DNA from: a virus
Length of the DNA: 64,000 bases
IMG/VR virus record: IMGVR_UViG_3300037628_000218
Span: 29,798 to 93,797 of that record
Direction: 5' to 3' (one strand)
How positions within the stretch are numbered: position 1 is the stretch's first letter; each line of letters begins with the position of its first letter. Of the stretch, positions 335-60,638 are shown in pieces. The position numbers and the translations under genes were made by a program. The notes beneath the pieces were generated by a model that was given only the letters and a program-made list of their open reading frames with translations, had not been told where the DNA came from and did no database searches.

Positions 335-643
335 TTACCCTCCAGTTTGTTTGTCGGTGCTATTCCGTAGAGACTCTATACCCTCAACACTTTTGGTAGT
401 TTTATAGAAGTGACCAGTGCTAGTGAGCACCTTACCTTCAATAAGACACTTGGAGTATGTTGTCTCCATGACTAACTTACCTTCAACTACTTCAAAACCC
501 ATTACAACACTTGTTGCAACTGGCCCACCTTCTGTAAGGGAATTCCTACCTTTCTCACCAGAATAAGCATCTACACTGGCAAGGGTAGCGTATGCTACTC
601 CATCTTGGCTAAGTAACACGTCTTTCAAAGTACCACGATACAT
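335..643 (-). CDS. hypothetical phage protein
   Basis: 102-aa ORF with GGAGG RBS. Confidence 0.65.
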   Translation of the reverse strand: MYRGTLKDVLLSQDGVAYATLASVDAYSGEKGRNSLTEGGPVATSVVMGFEVVEGKLVMETTYSKCLIEGKVLTSTGHFYKTTKSVEGIESLRNSTDKQTGG

Positions 644-654
644 ATAATAACCTC

Positions 655-1647
655 CTAAAAAATATATTCAATAAAGTAAGCACGAGTAATATCCTGAGCT
701 TCGCGAGTAAGGGCTTTACATATCTGAGGCCACTCTCCACCCGCAGCTTCCTTAGCATTATCTGCGAACTCCGAGTTGTACTCTGCTAGTGCATCTTTCA
801 TAAGAAGGCCCATTATACGCCCAAAGTCCTTGTTTGTCAGCTCTTCAACAACCTCCTTTGACAGGACATTAGCTAGTCGGTTAGCAGTCAAGTTAGAGTG
901 GACAGCAGCAAGAACCTCATTACCTTTCTCAGACAGGTCTACAGGCTTTGTAATAAGTTTGGAGATTTTACTCTCACTAAACTTACTGTTCTTATTCTTT
1001 ATAGCAACCCTGCTACCGTTACCGAAGTAAAGAACCTTTGAGTAAGGTACAATTACATTACCTTCTTTAACGTTAACCTCAGGGCTTTCATACCCTAATA
1101 ACTCAGGGACTAAGGAGTTTCCATTGTTAGGAACGGCTAAAGCATCATAGATATTATCCGCTAAACCTAAAAGAGGTACAACAGCTAAACCTGACCCCCG
1201 TATTATTTCTTCCATAACTTCAAAAGGTTGAGGTACATTGTCTAAGCGCAACTCAAAGGCCATGAACTCGTTGTTAGGGCTGTACTCTACCTCACCCGCT
1301 ACTCGTTTAGCGTTATCCCCCTGCTTACCGTTAAGGGAGCCACCAAAGATCTCACCGAAAATTCTAATTTCTTTTACGAATGGGTACATACGGATAATAT
1401 AATCTATAGCTTCACGAAACTCTTTGAACATTGAGGTATACCCATTAAAAGCTTCTGTATCCTTCAAGAATGCGTTACGGCGGCTAAACTCAAGAAGGTC
1501 TGTAGGTACATCATAGTGTATTCCGAAGTTAGCTCCATGTATCTTTTCAGTAATGGCGTACTTCACATTAGCGTACCCGTGCTCTTCAATTATAGCTATT
1601 AAGCGTTGTTTAACGTTCTCAAGACTGTGGTACTTTTTGAATTCCAT
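655..1647 (-). CDS. rnl2: RNA ligase 2 (T4 Rnl2 family)
   Basis: N-terminal FKKYHSLEN, motif I EKIHGANF, FGEIFGG, EGNVI, AIKNKNSKFSE, C-terminal RLANVLSK domain. Confidence 0.92.
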   Translation of the reverse strand: MEFKKYHSLENVKQRLIAIIEEHGYANVKYAITEKIHGANFGIHYDVPTDLLEFSRRNAFLKDTEAFNGYTSMFKEFREAIDYIIRMYPFVKEIRIFGEIFGGSLNGKQGDNAKRVAGEVEYSPNNEFMAFELRLDNVPQPFEVMEEIIRGSGLAVVPLLGLADNIYDALAVPNNGNSLVPELLGYESPEVNVKEGNVIVPYSKVLYFGNGSRVAIKNKNSKFSESKISKLITKPVDLSEKGNEVLAAVHSNLTANRLANVLSKEVVEELTNKDFGRIMGLLMKDALAEYNSEFADNAKEAAGGEWPQICKALTREAQDITRAYFIEYIF

Positions 1648-1667
1648 CTAGTTATTCCTCTTTTAGT

Positions 1668-2063
1668 TTATTGCAGGTTAGCCTTAGCAACCCTTGATGC
1701 CAGCTTACCATCGAACAAGCCCTTAGAGTACCTGTTAAGATACCCCATAAACTGACCAATACTGTTTGCATGTGACTCAACCCATATCACACAAAGCTCG
1801 TCCTCTGTCAGTTGTTTAGGTATGTACTCAGCAAGAATACCGATCTCAGTTTGAGTGTCCTCGCTGTATTTAATTGCTAGGAACTCCTGACAGTTACTTT
1901 GGAACTTCTTAACAAGTGCAAGCATATCAAACTTCTTTGCCTGCCTCCCTTTAAGTGCAGTCTCAGCTTCACCTACTAGCGTTGTCAGTAGGGTAGTGCG
2001 TAGCTTATCTGTGCCTTTCCGAGCTATTGTACGGTCTTGCTTAATTCTTGCTAGTAGTTCCAT
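1668..2063 (-). CDS. GatB/YqeY domain protein
   Basis: IKQDRTIARK...LLTTLVGE...EIGILAEYIPKQLTEDEL...IGQFMGYL...DGKLAS matches the YqeY pattern. Confidence 0.85.
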   Translation of the reverse strand: MELLARIKQDRTIARKGTDKLRTTLLTTLVGEAETALKGRQAKKFDMLALVKKFQSNCQEFLAIKYSEDTQTEIGILAEYIPKQLTEDELCVIWVESHANSIGQFMGYLNRYSKGLFDGKLASRVAKANLQ

Positions 2064-2082
2064 AGTTCCTCCTAAGTTAAAT

Positions 2083-2156
2083 TGGAGCAGGAGGGGGAAT
2101 TTAACCCTTCCGATTACCTTCGCAGACAGAGGTTAACGGTGTCTGTAGGATCCTGC
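2083..2156 (-). ncRNA. tRNA-like RNA (acceptor stem plus CCA end, non-cloverleaf body) or degenerate tRNA
   Basis: GCAGGA/TCCTGC stem followed by T-CCA; T-arm-like GGG-TTAAATT-CCC; central 6-bp hairpin CAGACA/TGTCTG; 6 nt downstream of tRNA-Arg. Confidence 0.5.
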
Positions 2157-2162
2157 ATAAAT

Positions 2163-2240
2163 TGGCACCCTCTGCTGGACTCGAACCAGCGACAATTGTG
2201 TTAGAAGCACAAATTCTCTAAAAGACTGAGCTAAGAGGGT
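2163..2240 (-). tRNA. tRNA-Arg(TCT)
   Basis: ACCCTCT/AGAGGGT acceptor, TTGTG-CTTCTAA-CACAA anticodon arm, GGTTCGAGTCC T-arm, encoded CCA. Confidence 0.93.
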
Positions 2241-2265
2241 TTAAAAGTGTTCATAGTAGGTTCTG

Positions 2266-2622
2266 CTAAAAAGGGAGGTCTTCCGCTAACACTGTCTGTT
2301 CTTCCTGTTCAACTCCCGTTAAGGTTACTCCTAACTTCTCTAGCTTAAGATTAACATTGTCCAACTGGTCTTGAAGGAGAATTTTAGTAGCAGCTATTAC
2401 TTGACCCACTATGTAACACTCTTCAAGATATATAGTATTACAGCTGTCACCATCAGGGGTTAGCATTACCCTTCTACTTTTGTTAAGGTCTAAGCGTTGC
2501 TCTGTTAAATTTCTTCCTGGCTTCGACCGCGCTAGGGTATAATTACAGTTACTTATACTCTTCTCTATTTTATTTCTTAAGTTAAGTAGAAAAGTCACAT
2601 CCTCAAAATCTGATTCTAACAT
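2266..2622 (-). CDS. hypothetical protein with acidic C-terminal EDLPF tail
   Basis: 118-aa ORF with AGGAG RBS. Confidence 0.6.
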   Translation of the reverse strand: MLESDFEDVTFLLNLRNKIEKSISNCNYTLARSKPGRNLTEQRLDLNKSRRVMLTPDGDSCNTIYLEECYIVGQVIAATKILLQDQLDNVNLKLEKLGVTLTGVEQEEQTVLAEDLPF

Positions 2623-2642
2623 AATTGTATCTCCTGTATTGT

Positions 2643-3608
2643 TTAAGCTGCTTTTGGTACGTGAACTCGCGCTTTGCCTGTACCATGTGTTTTCTTGATT
2701 AGATCTGGATGGTTCTTAGCCCAGTCCTGAACATACCAAAGTTGACCACAACCACCGCCTATATCATCTTGGCCTGCTGGATCAAACATACGTACACTAT
2801 ACCCTGCTTCTAGCATCTTGTCCATAAAATCTTCAACTAACTTACGTTGACGTTGGTTAGCAGCTGATACCCCTTCATCAGCTTCACATATTACTGACAA
2901 AGTACACTCCCAAATTCCTGCTGGGAAGTGTTCACGGAGGGCGGTAACATCCTCCATAGTGTTATTCTTATCATGCACACAGTAATTGAAGAAAGGTCTA
3001 CGTCCTGTGCTACCAGCCCAGTAAGAACCCCACTGAGAAATCTCAGATAGACTTAGCTTTGCTGTCATAGGGATTAACTTATCTCTAGCTTCTTGTACTG
3101 CTTCGTGGATTGAAAACTGTAAGCCTACTTGACTTATCTCTTGGCTTAACTCACACAATTCCAACCAGTTATGATGGGTAGAGTTAGGGGCCATAGTAGA
3201 GATCAGGAGGTCAGCAGTAGGGTACTCCACATTGAGTCTCCTTATAGCTGTTTTTAGCTCCTTCCAGTTCAGCATAGGCTCACCCATAGACATGAACATT
3301 ATTTGTAGTTTATCTATATCCTTAGCGCAGATTGATTCTTCAGATTCTGCAAGTAAGATACAAGCCTTCACCTGACTGAAGATCTCGTCAGCGGTTAAGT
3401 TCCTGATAAAGAAGTTACCAGTACCGCAGAAGCGACAACCAACAGGACACCCAGATTGAGTTGAGCAACAGACTACTGTTCGATCCATGTAAGTAGGGTA
3501 CTTGTAAAGCACTGCTTCAGCTACCGCACCATTGCTTCCCTCTTGTGTGAAAACAATCTTCTTAACATTCTGATCTGAACTATGAACTACCTCTTGCTTA
3601 TCCCACAT
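2643..3608 (-). CDS. RlmN/Cfr-like class A radical SAM methyltransferase
   Basis: VVCCSTQSGCPVGCRFC (CX3CX2C plus upstream Cys), MSMGEP, FSIH, C-terminal DDIGGGCGQL. Confidence 0.88.
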   Translation of the reverse strand: MWDKQEVVHSSDQNVKKIVFTQEGSNGAVAEAVLYKYPTYMDRTVVCCSTQSGCPVGCRFCGTGNFFIRNLTADEIFSQVKACILLAESEESICAKDIDKLQIMFMSMGEPMLNWKELKTAIRRLNVEYPTADLLISTMAPNSTHHNWLELCELSQEISQVGLQFSIHEAVQEARDKLIPMTAKLSLSEISQWGSYWAGSTGRRPFFNYCVHDKNNTMEDVTALREHFPAGIWECTLSVICEADEGVSAANQRQRKLVEDFMDKMLEAGYSVRMFDPAGQDDIGGGCGQLWYVQDWAKNHPDLIKKTHGTGKARVHVPKAA

Positions 3609-3677: not shown

Positions 3678-3720
3678 TTAAGTTGAGAGTACCTTACTTA
3701 ATTTCAGATACTCTGTCAAC
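3678..3720 (-). promoter_or_regulatory. sigma70 promoter cassette, copy 1 of a 43-bp direct repeat
   Basis: TTGACA-17-TAAGGT; 41/43 identical to 4365-4407. Confidence 0.7.
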
Positions 3721-3739: not shown

Positions 3740-4345
3740 TTAAATGTCCCAGCCTGTAGCTTCACGTACCATCTCAGTTAGCATCTCGTTTGCTGCTGAC
3801 CTTGCTGACCTTGCTGCTGCCTCTGCTGCCTCTGCTGACCTTGCTGCTGACCTTGCTGCTGACCTTGCTGCTGACCATGCTGCTGACCTTGCTGCTGACC
3901 TTGCTGCTGACCCTGCTGACCTTGCTGCTGACCTTGCTGCTGACCATGCTGCTGACCTTGCTGACTCCTCCCCTGTTTTTAGCCAAGTTAAGATTAACTC
4001 AAAATCTGCATCTGGGCAGTATGGTCTGATCTTTTCGATGTGAATCAAAGCCTGGCTCCTAGCAAATTGGTGTAGTATCTTATCTGCGTCTACCCAATCT
4101 ATATATTTCCTAGTAGAAGCTGCTATTTTATCAGTACCTACCACTATCTCCCCGCCAAGTTCAACCAAGTATAATATTGATCCTGGTGCGTGGTTAACTG
4201 CATCTAAGAGGTTGATAGATGCGTGTAGGCCATTTTTACATAGTTTGATCTTGCCAAGCACCTTATGGGTTGTACCCTTCCGTATTTTACGACCATCTCC
4301 GTGCCTTAATCGTCTCTCTTCCTTTGCAAAGTAAAAAGCTTGCAT
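3740..4345 (-). CDS. phage protein with N-terminal CKNGLHAS domain and C-terminal Ala-rich AARS repeats
   Basis: 201-aa ORF with RBS and its own promoter. Confidence 0.75.
   Translation of the reverse strand: MQAFYFAKEERRLRHGDGRKIRKGTTHKVLGKIKLCKNGLHASINLLDAVNHAPGSILYLVELGGEIVVGTDKIAASTRKYIDWVDADKILHQFARSQALIHIEKIRPYCPDADFELILTWLKTGEESARSAAWSAARSAARSAGSAARSAARSAAWSAARSAARSAARSAEAAEAAARSARSAANEMLTEMVREATGWDI
3791..3965. repeat. 12-nt coding tandem repeat (GCTGCTGACCTT)n encoding (AARS)n
   Basis: directly visible, with 9-nt variant units. Confidence 0.95.
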
Positions 4346-4364: not shown

Positions 4365-4407
4365 TTAAGTTGAGAGTATCCTACTTAATTTCAGATACTC
4401 TGTCAAC
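4365..4407 (-). promoter_or_regulatory. sigma70 promoter cassette, copy 2
   Basis: TTGACA-17-TAGGAT. Confidence 0.7.
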
Positions 4408-42458: not shown

Positions 42459-45400
42459 TTAAAGTGATTTTACAGAAGGAAGGTTCGCACCTCTAGGCTC
42501 TAGGTCTGATACCTTTACTTGATCTACTGAGCCTACTATATCTGCTGCCAGAGTTCTTGTATGGCTCTGATTGCGTGGGACTATCCTAACTATACGAGCT
42601 GTTGAAAGGTAGTTAAATGCAGAGGCTGTGGCATCAGGCCAGTCATCTTTTCTATGAGATGATGATCTTTCTCCATCGAAGGCTTCGCTCTCCTTGAAAA
42701 ATGCGTCTAACGTTGCAGGATTAAAAGAGCTTTTAACTAAGTAGACTAGACCATTTTCAGCTGCGCTTGAGAAGGGTAGGTATCTAGTTAACTTACCGCT
42801 AGTTGTTGGCATAGGATCTTTCTTGACAACGTAACCGAGAGTTATCAATTTCCGTGCTGAGTCAGTGTATTCTGTTATACCTGCGGCTCCTGGGTCTTGC
42901 GAGAGGATCACAGTGCATTCAGTTCCATCTTGTTCTGCTTGCTTGTGTACTAGGACTTCTCGTCTGCCAGAACGCTCTCTGAACCTACCGAAGACCTTAT
43001 TCTGCTTGCAGTCCTTCTTATCATAGTTATCACTTTCGTAATCACCTATCAGGTAGAAGAAGCCATGCCTATCCTTAGCCATTTTTACAGAAGCTGTGTA
43101 ATCTGGGTGTGTGTTCTTCTCAGAGGGTTCTGTAGCTGCCTTATCCCAAGCCCTACAGTATGCTGCTCCTTCTGGAACTGTATCAACTACAGTTAACCAG
43201 CTTCTTTGGAAGTGTGAGGAGCCTTCTGGCCTAGCGTACCAGTTACCATGTAGTAATCTATCTTTTTCTATCTGAGGTAATGCGTTAAGCTGCGAGACAT
43301 AGCCAGGGTTAGCTAACCTTACTGCGGCGTTATCAAAGATAGTTCCCCCTATAAACGTAATAGTCTTAGGTGGGAAATACTCCTTTTCCCCAGTGTTAGG
43401 GTTGTTTACCCAGCAAATGGTAGGGTGAAGCTCCTCCATCTCTTTAACAGTGTCAGTGAAGTAGAGTTCGTCATTAATCATGCCGTAAAACTTTTGCACC
43501 CCAGCTTTACTCTTATCTGGAAACCCCTCATCATCTAACCACCAATCTATGAGTTGAGCAATGTAGCTATCAGGGTCAGGGTTGCAAGAGATAAACATCG
43601 TACTTTTAACTTCAGCACTAGAACGCAATCGAGACATTAAAAATGTAATTTGGTATTGTGTAAAGGCGGTTCCTTCATCAAAGTAGATTTGGGAGTACTG
43701 CTTACCTTGATGGTCATCAGCGTTTTTCTCATGTTCCATATGAGAAAACTTTATCTGTGCGCCAGAAGGAAAATGTATTTCTCGCGCATTCTCTTTTATC
43801 TTTGCTCCAAAATTTCTGTATATGCTTTTAGCTTCATTCCAGACAGAACCAGAGCCTGTTAGCATTGCCCCAGTTCTACGGAAGAAGATAGCCTCGAATT
43901 TTGGGTCATGGATTTGTAAGAGGGGTCTAAGCAGCATTAAATGGGTTTTACCCAAGGCATTACACGTAATAGTGGTCTTTAAATCCGTCTGATTTAAGAC
44001 GGTAGGTTAGTTTTTGTCTTGACCACCTTAGTATTCTTGCTGCGTCCCTAACCCCATTGTATCTTACCCCTGAAACATAAACTGGTTTCTTTTGATGGGC
44101 GTTAAGCCCGTTTCTTATATAAGGGTCATTCATAGGGTTATTGGCTGTTGTAAATAAGCCAGGGTGCTTTGCAAGAACTTCAGGGCGTTTCATAGGGTTT
44201 AGTTTGCCCATTTGAACGCCAGGTCTACCTCCACAAGAAATGTTGTAGTAGCTTTTACTCTTAACTTCATCGACACCTATAAGAAGCTCCTCTATTTCGT
44301 AAGCCTCGTCTAGATCCTTACAAACCATAAGCTGGAACTCAAAGTTTTCTCTTCCGTATTTACGGATGGCGTGACCAAAAGGGTATGGGGACGAACCGTG
44401 TTCTTTTAGTCTTCTCTTGAAGTTATTAGTTATCCCTACGTAAACCTTATTACTAGGAGATCTTGCAACGTATACTAAGTGTGTCAAAGCTTTCCTTACC
44501 ACAGCCGTAGCTGGTATCTATTACGTCTAACGCCTCGGACTATCTCATCACCCTTCACAGGGGCTGGACGCTATGTTGTCGTTACAAATTATATGACAAT
44601 AGGTTGTTCCCTCTGGTTTAGAGGTGTACTTCATATTGAATTTGTATTTCATACTGTTAGGTATGTCAGTTAAGTAGGGTCGGAGGAGATCAAAAAACAG
44701 TTTAAGGTTAGTCGCATTTAAGTATATGCAATAACTTCCTTTGGCTTTGTAGATCTTGACATCTATATTGAACCGTTGTTTGAACATTCTTTGTATTGTG
44801 AGCTGGGAGTTATAATCAAGATTGTGTGTAGCTAAGCTGCCATGCCTACTAACGCTACCATTAGCCTTCACATGAACTGATAAGCTACCATTGTCCAACC
44901 ACCAAAGTAAAAGACCTATAGGTGTTATCCTGTCCGCAACATACTTAGAAACATATTTGATGCCATTAGAGTTTAACACCCTACTATGATCCACATGTCT
45001 GTTTGTTTGCAATTTACAGCTTACTTGAGAGTAAGTATGCTCTCCATAAGTTGTAAGTCTTTTGTAGTCATATCTAGTGGTAGTCTTAAGACCCCATGAT
45101 GTGTATAGAGCTTCTAGCCAAACAACGTAGTCTCTTTGCTTATTGGCATGTGTGCTTTCTACCCAATGCCCTGTACTACTATTCCTTCTGAGATACCCAT
45201 TGCCCAGGATGTTTCCAAATAGGCTATAATGTATCTCCTTTTTACTTAACTGTTTCATAGTAGAATCCTCTACTTTAGATTTTAACGACTAACTAGTCTC
45301 TGAACCGTCCTACTCTGTAGGCTTGGCTGCCGATTGCCTGTTAAGGGTTCCAGCAATTCATCCAGTTTTTCTTTTGATTCTTACGAAAAAGGGAAGCCGA

Positions 45401-45604: not shown

Positions 45605-45679
45605 TGGCTCCCACGGCTGGACTTGAACCAACACTGCTAGAGTCAAAGTCTAGTGTCCTACCAATTAGACGACATGGGA
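45605..45679 (-). tRNA. tRNA-Gln(TTG)
   Basis: CTAGA-CTTTGAC-TCTAG, GGTTCAAGTCC, CCA. Confidence 0.92.
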
Positions 45680-45685
45680 ATTGGT

Positions 45686-45762
45686 TGGCTCCGAGGGTAG
45701 GGGTCGAACCTACGAAATCTTGGTTAACAGCCAAGAGCATTGCCGCTCTGCTCCACCTCGGA
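45686..45762 (-). tRNA. tRNA-Asn(GTT)
   Basis: CTTGG-CTGTTAA-CCAAG, GGTTCGACCCC, CCA. Confidence 0.92.
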
Positions 45763-45768
45763 ATGATT

Positions 45769-45862
45769 TGGTGCCAGCATACCGAGTCTCACGGCGGATC
45801 TACAAGGCTCTCGTTGGTCACCTAAGAGCGTCCTTTTACTAGGGTTCACAACTTCTGCTGTG
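45769..45862 (-). ncRNA. CCA-ended tRNA-like RNA inside the tRNA cluster
   Basis: CAGCA/TGCTG stem then GCACCA; CCG-TGAGACT-CGG T-like arm; GCTCTT/GAGAGC hairpin; 5' end approximate. Confidence 0.55.
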
Positions 45863-45897
45863 ATACTATATCGGGGTAAGCCCCGAGTCCCTGTATT

Positions 45898-45973
45898 TGG
45901 TAGCGGAAGTGCGAGTTGAACGCATTGGGCTTAGGTTATGAGCCTAGCTGGGAACCCTCCCTATACGACCGCG
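45898..45973 (-). tRNA. tRNA-Met(CAT), initiator-like with atypical D arm
   Basis: CGCGG start with 1:72 mismatch, TAGG-CTCATAA-CCTA, GCGTTCAACTCGC, ACCA. Confidence 0.8.
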
Positions 45974-45979
45974 ATTGTT

Positions 45980-46055
45980 TGGAGCTTACAGTAGGTCTCG
46001 AACCCACGACATCCTCTTTACAAGAGAGGTGCTCTACCAGCTGAGCTATGCAAGC
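45980..46055 (-). tRNA. tRNA-Thr(TGT)
   Basis: CCTCT-CTTGTAA-AGAGG, GGTTCGAGACC, CCA. Confidence 0.93.
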
Positions 46056-55697: not shown

Positions 55698-56405
55698 ATG
55701 GTGTTACCTACTCTCGCAGCCGAAGGAGAAGAAATGAATATACAACAACATAAAGAGATTGCTAAGGAAATATTAGCCAAGCTACAAACTCTGGACAGTC
55801 GAGCTATATTAGCTGGAGGTGCTGTAAGGGATTGGTTCTTTAATAAAGAAGCTAAGGACTTAGACTTCTATGTAGATATGGGTGCATTTCCTTCTGGGAC
55901 TTCCTCTGACCTTCACGGAACCTTAAAACGGGTTCTGGAAGAGGTATTAGGGGTGGAGTTAGTATCACTGCGTAGTGCGGATGGAAACCCTTATTTAGAC
56001 GAAAATGACGAGGCAGGTGAGGGGCTAAAGGAAGTCCTGGAAGGATCTTTCCAAGATTGTCATATTCAAATCATGTTATACGAGGGTAAGCCCCTTGATT
56101 ATGTAATTAAGTATTTTAATACCTCTATCTGTCAATGTTATTGGGAGGGTGGAAATAAGTTACCAAAGTATTTATCCCACTTTATAGCTAGTGTTGGTAA
56201 CAAGATTATCACCTATAAGAAAGGTATGCTGGATAGCTATCATGTGGCTAAAATGAAGGGGTACTTTCCAGAGTATACATTTGTAGAGGGGGTAAAATGC
56301 AAGCAGGGTGGAGTCTATTCTACTGAAAGGCTCTTAACAGTCTTTACACATAAAGACTCATCCTACATAGGTGAAGAGGGCTTAGTAGAGAGCATCCCAT
56401 ACTAA
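55698..56405 (+). CDS. nucleotidyltransferase (CCA-adding/poly(A) polymerase head-domain type)
   Basis: LAGGAVRD...KDLDF; likely start MNIQQ at 55734. Confidence 0.8.
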   Translation: MVLPTLAAEGEEMNIQQHKEIAKEILAKLQTLDSRAILAGGAVRDWFFNKEAKDLDFYVDMGAFPSGTSSDLHGTLKRVLEEVLGVELVSLRSADGNPYLDENDEAGEGLKEVLEGSFQDCHIQIMLYEGKPLDYVIKYFNTSICQCYWEGGNKLPKYLSHFIASVGNKIITYKKGMLDSYHVAKMKGYFPEYTFVEGVKCKQGGVYSTERLLTVFTHKDSSYIGEEGLVESIPY

Positions 56406-60116: not shown

Positions 60117-60638
60117 ATGTGTAATGTTTTCTTTATATCTGACTTACACCTAGGCCATAAGCGTATTTGTGAGTTTACTCCTAATTACAGATCAGGAGAT
60201 TGCTGTATAGAGAATATGCACAACCTGATTATCAACTGGAATAGCGTTGTTACTAGACGAGATATAGTTTGGGTATTAGGAGATGTAGCATTCACTCAAG
60301 AAGGCTTTGATGCTCTATACGAGTTAAATGGACGTAAGAAATTAGTAAGAGGTAATCATGATAATAACTTTAAGACTGAAGATTGGTTAAAGCACTTTGA
60401 GACTGTAGAAGGTATTACCCGCTATAAGGGATACTGGCTAACACATGCTCCTATTCACCCTACAGAGCTAAGAGGTAAACGGAATATTCATGGTCATGTA
60501 CACGGTAATAGCATTAGAGATGTATATGGAGAATACGACACAAGGTATATCAACGTATGTTGTGAAGCTGTTAATGAGACCCCTATACTCTTTGATGATA
60601 TACGTAGCGGGAAGTATCATGAGGTACGTAAGTGTTGA
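60117..60638 (+). CDS. calcineurin-like metallophosphoesterase
   Basis: SDLHLGH, LGD, GNHD, THAP, HGHVH. Confidence 0.9.
   Translation: MCNVFFISDLHLGHKRICEFTPNYRSGDCCIENMHNLIINWNSVVTRRDIVWVLGDVAFTQEGFDALYELNGRKKLVRGNHDNNFKTEDWLKHFETVEGITRYKGYWLTHAPIHPTELRGKRNIHGHVHGNSIRDVYGEYDTRYINVCCEAVNETPILFDDIRSGKYHEVRKC

Follow-up and report, generated by a model that had tools for sequence, protein, structure and literature searches.

Why would a phage keep an RNA ligase, a YqeY-like protein, a tRNA-Arg, a tRNA-like element, and an RNA methylase packed side by side? The question is raised by IMG/VR record IMGVR_UViG_3300037628_000218, a 93,797-bp genome of an uncultured phage that has direct terminal repeats and is rated 100% complete; the window analyzed here is the stretch of 64,000 nucleotides (nt) formed by its bases 29798-93797, and the genes at issue lie at window positions 655-3608. 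An earlier sequence-only reading had proposed that they form one integrated counter-defense system that repairs tRNAs, armors them by methylation, and distracts tRNA-targeting toxins with a tRNA mimic. Our results support, with moderate confidence, a composite early-region operon, in which a conserved tRNA island core (tRNA-Arg, a slot formerly occupied by tRNA-Cys, YqeY, and an Rnl2-type ligase) is combined with a variable methylase. We regard the locus as a variant of the phage tRNA/RNA-repair islands already known and not as a proven system of repair, armor, and decoy. Its main elements are as follows.

655-1647, minus strand: Rnl2-type RNA ligase, 330 amino acids (PF09414, PF18043, phrog_548, 2hvq)
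1668-2063, minus strand: YqeY-like protein, 131 amino acids (PF09424, phrog_1460, 1ng6)
2083-2156, minus strand: CCA-ended element of 74 nt, a decayed tRNA-Cys by comparison with the tRNA-Cys slot of the relative G043
2163-2240, minus strand: tRNA-Arg(UCU), called by ARAGORN, 49.2 bits with Rfam, deviant D arm
2643-3608, minus strand: shortened radical SAM RNA methylase of the RlmN/Cfr type, 321 amino acids (TIGR00048, PDB matches, cysteines, fold)

The map of window open reading frames (ORFs) and tRNAs places every element of this cassette on the minus strand, co-oriented and separated from its neighbor by 7 to 26 nt. The packed arrangement that the sequence-only reading described is thus real, and the identities that it gave to the ligase, YqeY, tRNA-Arg, and the RlmN-like protein are borne out by profile, PDB, ARAGORN/Rfam, and fold evidence.

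What defines the core is its retention in three syntenic relatives, which keep tRNA-Arg, the tRNA-Cys slot, YqeY, and Rnl2. The closest complete relative, G043 (94,888 bp with direct terminal repeats, read via loci L086 and L090), has the order orf118-like gene, tRNA-Arg(UCU), tRNA-Cys(GCA), YqeY (74% identity), Rnl2 (70%), and orf102-like gene, bounded on one side by the ribonucleotide reductase (RNR) gene and beyond orf102 by a primase-helicase gene. G043, the relatives L087 and L088, and the window phage share the order RNR (87 to 89% identity), YqeY, Rnl2, orf102, a 221-amino-acid protein, and primase-helicase; in all three relatives (3/3), Rnl2 comes immediately after YqeY, and tRNA-Cys stands alongside.

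The ligase belongs to the Rnl2 type in both of its domains. The nucleotidyltransferase domain matches PF09414 (E = 7.7e-13) and phrog_548 (1e-55), the Rnl2-specific C-terminal domain is present (PF18043, 61.4 bits; cutoff, 27), and residues 3-329 align over the full length with residues 3-334 of T4 Rnl2 (2hvq; E = 7e-24). The catalytic motifs are aligned as well: I (EKIHGANF, opposite K35 of the T4 enzyme), III, IV (the glutamate), and V (KNKNSKF, opposite K225/K227). The TIGR02307 equivalog score of 132.8 bits falls under the cutoff of 197.15, and the protein is therefore a divergent member of the family. To our knowledge, the biological role of T4 Rnl2 itself is not known. The window ligase would most likely act on folded RNA, tRNA being the favored candidate, and reseal breaks with 3'-OH/5'-phosphate ends. 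Ligase chemistry bears on which breaks these could be: Rnl2 alone needs 3'-OH/5'-phosphate ends (PMC7824862), a need that would fit the breaks left by metal-dependent nucleases and not the cyclic-phosphate breaks of the PrrC type.

The YqeY-like protein scores 33.8 bits with PF09424 (cutoff, 27), matches phrog_1460 ("tRNA amidotransferase"; 5e-24), and can be aligned from end to end with residues 1-146 of Bacillus subtilis YqeY (1ng6; E = 6e-5); the GatB tail domain, which binds tRNA, is a homologue. We know of no stand-alone YqeY protein with an established function. Binding to tRNA is suggested by the GatB-tail homology and by gene neighborhoods, which recur in cultured phages. In Burkholderia phage BcepSaruman (L176:2761-4468), YqeY (PF09424, 54.6 bits) begins 10 nt after an RtcB gene (PF01139, 400 bits). 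Ralstonia phage RSP15 (L091) has the order DUF2828+vWA protein, 7-tRNA array, YqeY, HD, AAA_33 kinase, and metallophosphoesterases, so that YqeY appears to stand next to a complete end-healing kit; the DUF2828+vWA protein is annotated as RNA binding and possibly Ro-like. YqeY lies within or adjoins tRNA arrays in Ceto, Astolliot, and pf16, and muut and phiN3 are weaker cases of linkage. The "RNA ligase" annotated in Sinorhizobium phage phiN3 (L092:469-963) matches the anti-CBASS Acb1 family (PF23474) and is not a ligase.

Overall, five of the seven cultured lineages examined link YqeY to RNA-repair enzymes or tRNA genes, and the placement of YqeY in tRNA arrays, by RtcB, and by a Pnk-type kinase with phosphoesterases supports a tRNA or RNA-repair role. 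Because of the GatB-tail homology and the repeated placement in tRNA arrays and by two unrelated ligase families, the window protein would most likely be a tRNA-binding helper for the repair proposed above or for tRNA handling. A bolder version, in which stand-alone YqeY-like proteins are tRNA-recognizing adaptors for unrelated phage RNA ligases (Rnl2 here, RtcB in BcepSaruman), is put forward tentatively and seems to us rather unlikely. Prediction of an Rnl2-YqeY complex gave a score of 0.00 and no verdict, which speaks neither for nor against binding. Queried with the YqeY alignment, metagenomes yielded no relatives, and the viral scan with this alignment returned the same four loci as the single-protein query.

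Several observations weigh against a repair function of the core. Profile searches of the complete genome found no AAA_33/Pnk-type kinase, Rnl1, or RtcB, with the AAA_33 profile matching in 14 of 14 control genomes; 2',3'-cyclic phosphate/5'-OH breaks, the usual product of anticodon nucleases, would consequently be beyond healing by the known phage enzymes here. Since the phages that share the synteny are related to one another, their YqeY-Rnl2 adjacency represents a small number of independent events. YqeY also lacks a nearby ligase in some phages: the PF09414 family (Rnl2/DNA-ligase type) was not found in muut, and the PF09414 ligase of RSP15 lies 35 kb from YqeY. Finally, the eroded look of both tRNAs in the present copy suggests that the island is under weak selection.

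Two further enzymes had been brought into the repair proposal. The ORF at 55698 (plus strand) does encode a phage nucleotidyltransferase (phrog_10174, 3e-23), and 60117-60638 (plus strand) does encode a phosphoesterase (phrog_547, 5e-51). The CCA-type assignment of the former was not borne out, its PolyA_pol head match of 22.4 bits being under the 23-bit cutoff, and both ORFs are unlinked to the cassette, from which they are separated by 52 to 57 kb and by strand. The tRNA repair proposal itself retains the conserved YqeY-Rnl2-tRNA core and the repair enzymes beside YqeY elsewhere in its favor and has the missing end-healing kinase against it. A term search of a review of this field (PMC7824862) for YqeY and RlmN-like proteins gave nothing.

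A decoy role found no support. In G043, an intact tRNA-Cys(GCA) (51.2 bits) stands precisely where the window phage has the 74-nt element, and the two are identical in the flanks, in the 5' acceptor GCAGG, and in the 3' end CCTGC-T-CCA; the interior is identical at 32 of 55 positions, which only 0.55% of shuffles equal (P ~0.006). The element is therefore homologous to tRNA-Cys along its whole length and not a replacement. It has retained the 6-bp acceptor stem, U73, the encoded CCA, and a 3-bp T stem, and it has lost the D stem and the anticodon stem; the anticodon triplet reads GCG, not GCA, and the positions aligned with U8, G18G19, and C56 hold other bases. U73 is a known determinant for cysteinyl-tRNA synthetase. 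A tRNA-Gly identity based on G1-C72, C2-G71, and U73 was considered and rejected, these positions being inherited from tRNA-Cys. A working tRNA of unusual form was likewise rejected: Rfam RF00005 gave no match to the element at E <= 10 in a 301-nt search, ARAGORN made no call even in mitochondrial mode or at 50% of its score thresholds, and an alternative fold as a long hairpin has unremarkable stability (z = -1.24). No second tRNA-Cys is present in the complete genome, and the decayed form was seen only in this genome.

The simplest reading of the element is a dead tRNA-Cys gene that has kept its acceptor/T minihelix and CCA, as part of an erosion of the tRNA pair; what remains may still permit processing. 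Its partner, tRNA-Arg(UCU), has no G18G19 and a nonstandard 10-25 pair and scores 49.2 bits, versus 64.8 for the G043 orthologue; partial erosion may account for this, or an adaptation to functioning with a weakened elbow. AGA and AGG make up 52% of the Arg codons in the phage ORFs, and codon supply alone thus suffices to explain this tRNA.

The methylase has RlmN and Cfr as its best-matching families. It scores 93 bits with TIGR00048 (1.7e-26; model positions 76-343) and 81 to 86 bits with Cfr models (E = 2e-24 to 8e-23), far below the equivalog cutoffs of 290 bits for RlmN and 530 to 550 for Cfr, and its PDB matches are RlmN (6fz6, 1e-19) and Cfr (9p0p, 1e-18). The CxxxCxxC motif is found at C54/C58/C61. 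The mechanistic cysteines are also present: C47, the equivalent of Escherichia coli C118, stands 7 residues ahead of this motif, and C287, the equivalent of C355, stands in GGGCGQLW, aligned with AACGQLY of Cfr. All of these are invariant among 35 clade members, as are the extra cysteines C210 (NYCVH) and C241 (SVICE). The AlphaFold (AF2) model of the protein has a pLDDT of 90.2 and a pTM of 0.90, and its top 11 PDB matches in Foldseek are all RlmN or Cfr (E = 4e-20 to 6e-14), with the next radical SAM family at 2e-5. The protein would methylate an adenine carbon via the methyl-cysteine mechanism, with A37 of tRNA or A2503 of 23S rRNA as the probable target.

The N-terminal accessory (RNA-binding) domain of about 75 residues is absent, the match beginning at position 76 of the 355-position model. 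A GGAG site precedes the ORF start by 9 nt, and the domain is not encoded by any ORF upstream of the gene. The shortened form belongs to a very large phage clade. More than 5,500 proteins were found at E <= 1e-3, the best 120 of which are 58 to 72% identical and nearly all 302 to 347 amino acids long, and members occur in cultured phages of Stenotrophomonas, Xanthomonas, Salmonella, Aeromonas, and Vibrio. Our literature search found no paper describing this clade.

In the composite operon that we favor, the methylase would sit in an upstream variable slot, under a duplicated promoter and independent of the core. The gene is absent from G043, in a search with the RlmN family that did match the control genome G005, and from L087 and L088. 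What lies between RNR and YqeY varies; in G043, the slot holds an unrelated 224-amino-acid ORF. Further features of the locus are as follows.

2266-2622, minus strand: orf118, 118 amino acids, without family assignment, predicted helical hairpin
335-643, minus strand: orf102, 102 amino acids, without family assignment, downstream neighbor of Rnl2, conserved in relatives (42 to 44% identity)
3682-3719, minus strand: promoter-like element of 38 nt, TTGACA-N17-TAAGGT, upstream of the RlmN-like gene, with the inverted repeat GAGTATC/GATACTC inside
4369-4406, minus strand: second copy of the 38-nt putative promoter/operator element, preceding the DUF7666 gene (3740-4345)

The single promoter that the sequence-only reading had placed ahead of the genes is found at 3682-3719. 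A consensus promoter scan missed this site because its -10 element (TAAGGT) is weak. The window has two copies of the exact 38-nt pattern, and 100 shuffles had none; the inverted repeat spans the spacer and the -10 element. The relative G043 has one copy, with 2 mismatches, at L090:9218-9255. The 38-nt element may be a phage early promoter with operator that flanks the variable gene slot, and co-transcription of the cassette from the 3682-3719 site is plausible.

Of the other explanations, the one that survives best posits no functional coupling at all: the stretch from RNR to primase-helicase would be a hotspot for accessory genes, tRNA-Arg would decode AGR codons, and Rnl2, YqeY, and the methylase would each act alone on unrelated targets. 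We regard this as rather unlikely. The content of the slot does vary, with the DUF7666 and RlmN-like genes found only in the window phage; each gene in G043 has a promoter-like site of its own; and the share of AGA and AGG codons given above would account for the tRNA. In a tblastn survey of 80 IMG/VR loci with RlmN-like genes, YqeY was found within 6 kb in one case and Rnl2 likewise in one (1/80 each). Set against this are the placement of YqeY beside tRNA arrays and two unrelated ligase families in several lineages, as well as distances within contigs: YqeY is present in 12 of 42 contigs with RlmN-like genes and, from the listed coordinates, lies within ~10.5 kb of the RlmN-like gene in 7 of these 12, and PF09414 ligases are present in 18 of the 42 and lie within ~6.5 kb in 6 of the 18. 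RlmN-like genes, YqeY, ligases, and tRNA genes show a loose regional association.

The sequence-only reading had proposed to look for co-occurrence of the genes across phages, and the outcome was divided: YqeY, Rnl2, and tRNA genes stand together in the three relatives, and the RlmN-like gene and YqeY are adjacent in the nonsyntenic phage L010, but the whole cassette is repeated in none of ~160 RlmN-like loci. The nearest RlmN-like relative (71% identity; L095) lies upstream of a 14-tRNA array on an otherwise unrelated contig. The G005 contig (L010) has two RlmN-like paralogues, at 66304-67143 and 102750-103469.

A second alternative is translation tuning, in which the methylase would act on 23S A2503 or tRNA A37 in favor of phage decoding, YqeY would work at the ribosome, and Rnl2 would act on unrelated RNA. 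RlmN and Cfr, the only characterized relatives of the methylase, act on A2503, and RlmN also acts on A37. Bacterial yqeY adjoins rpsU, in line with a ribosomal role of YqeY, and several papers treat yqeY alongside bS21/rpsU. Among 17 RlmN-like phages at least 90% complete, 4 have no tRNA genes, and phage tRNAs can thus not be the sole substrate of these proteins. Nevertheless, we consider translation tuning improbable, given that the neighbors of phage YqeY are tRNA genes and enzymes of RNA end healing and sealing, not ribosomal genes, and that RlmN-like genes frequently have tRNA genes at their flanks, tRNA-Arg in particular. A tRNA-Arg (UCU, UCG, or GCG) is among the nearest tRNA neighbors in L095, L110, L121, L141, L125, L062, and L011, and a pair of tRNA-Arg(UCU) genes ends 28 nt ahead of the RlmN-like gene in L141. 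Such neighbors could hint at a tRNA-Arg substrate or reflect the commonness of tRNA-Arg in phages. Missing from three syntenic relatives and present in tRNA-less phages, the methylase behaves as a separate, variable cassette.

The integrated counter-defense unit, with repair of cut tRNAs by the ligase, resistance of tRNAs to host nucleases through the methylase, and the 74-nt RNA as a decoy for tRNA-targeting toxins, is very improbable: co-oriented packing behind one promoter-like site, an acceptor stem, U73, and CCA kept despite a diverged interior, and the RlmN-like/YqeY adjacency in L010 speak for it, but the 74-nt element is ~64% identical to tRNA-Cys over its whole length and hence little more diverged than tRNA-Arg (70%), its form is confined to this genome with a fold z score of -1.24, the methylase is missing in the syntenic relatives, and the full cassette was not found elsewhere.

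Under the composite operon reading, the locus remains of interest for phage defense biology. Islands of tRNA genes and kits for RNA repair are a recognized phage answer to the tRNA-cleaving defenses of bacteria, and this locus might have a role against host nucleases. To such islands it adds two components, the YqeY-like protein and the shortened RlmN/Cfr-type methylase. The YqeY-ligase link is the most useful lead, in that the recurrence of YqeY beside RNA ligases and tRNA genes provides a concrete assay for the YqeY family; if the adaptor proposal is true, YqeY would be an unrecognized component of phage tRNA repair, and the widespread bacterial YqeY family would gain its first testable function. 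The target of the methylase clade could be tRNA A37 or ribosomal A2503, the site modified by Cfr. The tempting "tRNA decoy" is a decaying tRNA gene, which calls for caution with similar assignments.

Some features of the surroundings may be added. For orf118, a 31%-identical homologue is found in the same position in G043, and a structure-atlas search gave weak coiled-coil or prefoldin-like leads only. The RNR large-subunit gene of the window phage (4412-5920, minus strand) carries an intein, and the G043 RNR gene (L090:566-3020) is split into two ORFs with a 127-amino-acid ORF between them. Homing endonuclease genes of the GIY-YIG (I-TevI-like) and LAGLIDADG types (43960-45258 and 45605-46055, both minus strand) adjoin a second tRNA cluster (Gln, Asn, and Thr).

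Compared with known systems, the methylase shares the CxxxCxxC motif, both mechanistic cysteines, and the fold with RlmN, which forms m2A2503 in 23S rRNA and m2A37 in tRNA, and with Cfr, which forms m8A2503; it differs from them by the lack of the N-terminal accessory domain, by sub-equivalog scores, and by C210 and C241. The 74-nt element resembles eroded or nondecoding tRNA derivatives of phage tRNA clusters, such as the T4 species 1 and 2 RNAs and pseudo-tRNAs, in following directly after a tRNA gene (6 nt), in its CCA end, and in its acceptor/T minihelix; unlike them, it is clearly derived from tRNA-Cys and was seen in this genome alone. The YqeY-like protein is a full-length member of the fold family (PF09424, phrog_1460) of B. 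subtilis YqeY (1NG6) and the GatB C-terminal tail, from which it differs as a stand-alone phage protein beside RNA ligases and tRNA genes. The ligase has motifs I, III, IV, and V and the C-terminal domain in common with T4 RNA ligase 2 (gp24.1; PDB 2HVQ) and stands apart from it in falling under the TIGR02307 equivalog cutoff. In T4 tRNA repair, Pnkp and Rnl1 counter the anticodon nuclease PrrC; the window ligase is of the Rnl2 type, not Rnl1, and the complete genome is without the kinase-phosphatase. With T4 and with other phage RNA-repair kits (PMC7824862), the locus shares an ATP-dependent RNA ligase of the phage beside tRNA genes of the phage, and in other lineages YqeY stands by the parts of such kits, namely a Pnk-type kinase, HD, and metallophosphoesterase in RSP15 and RtcB in BcepSaruman.

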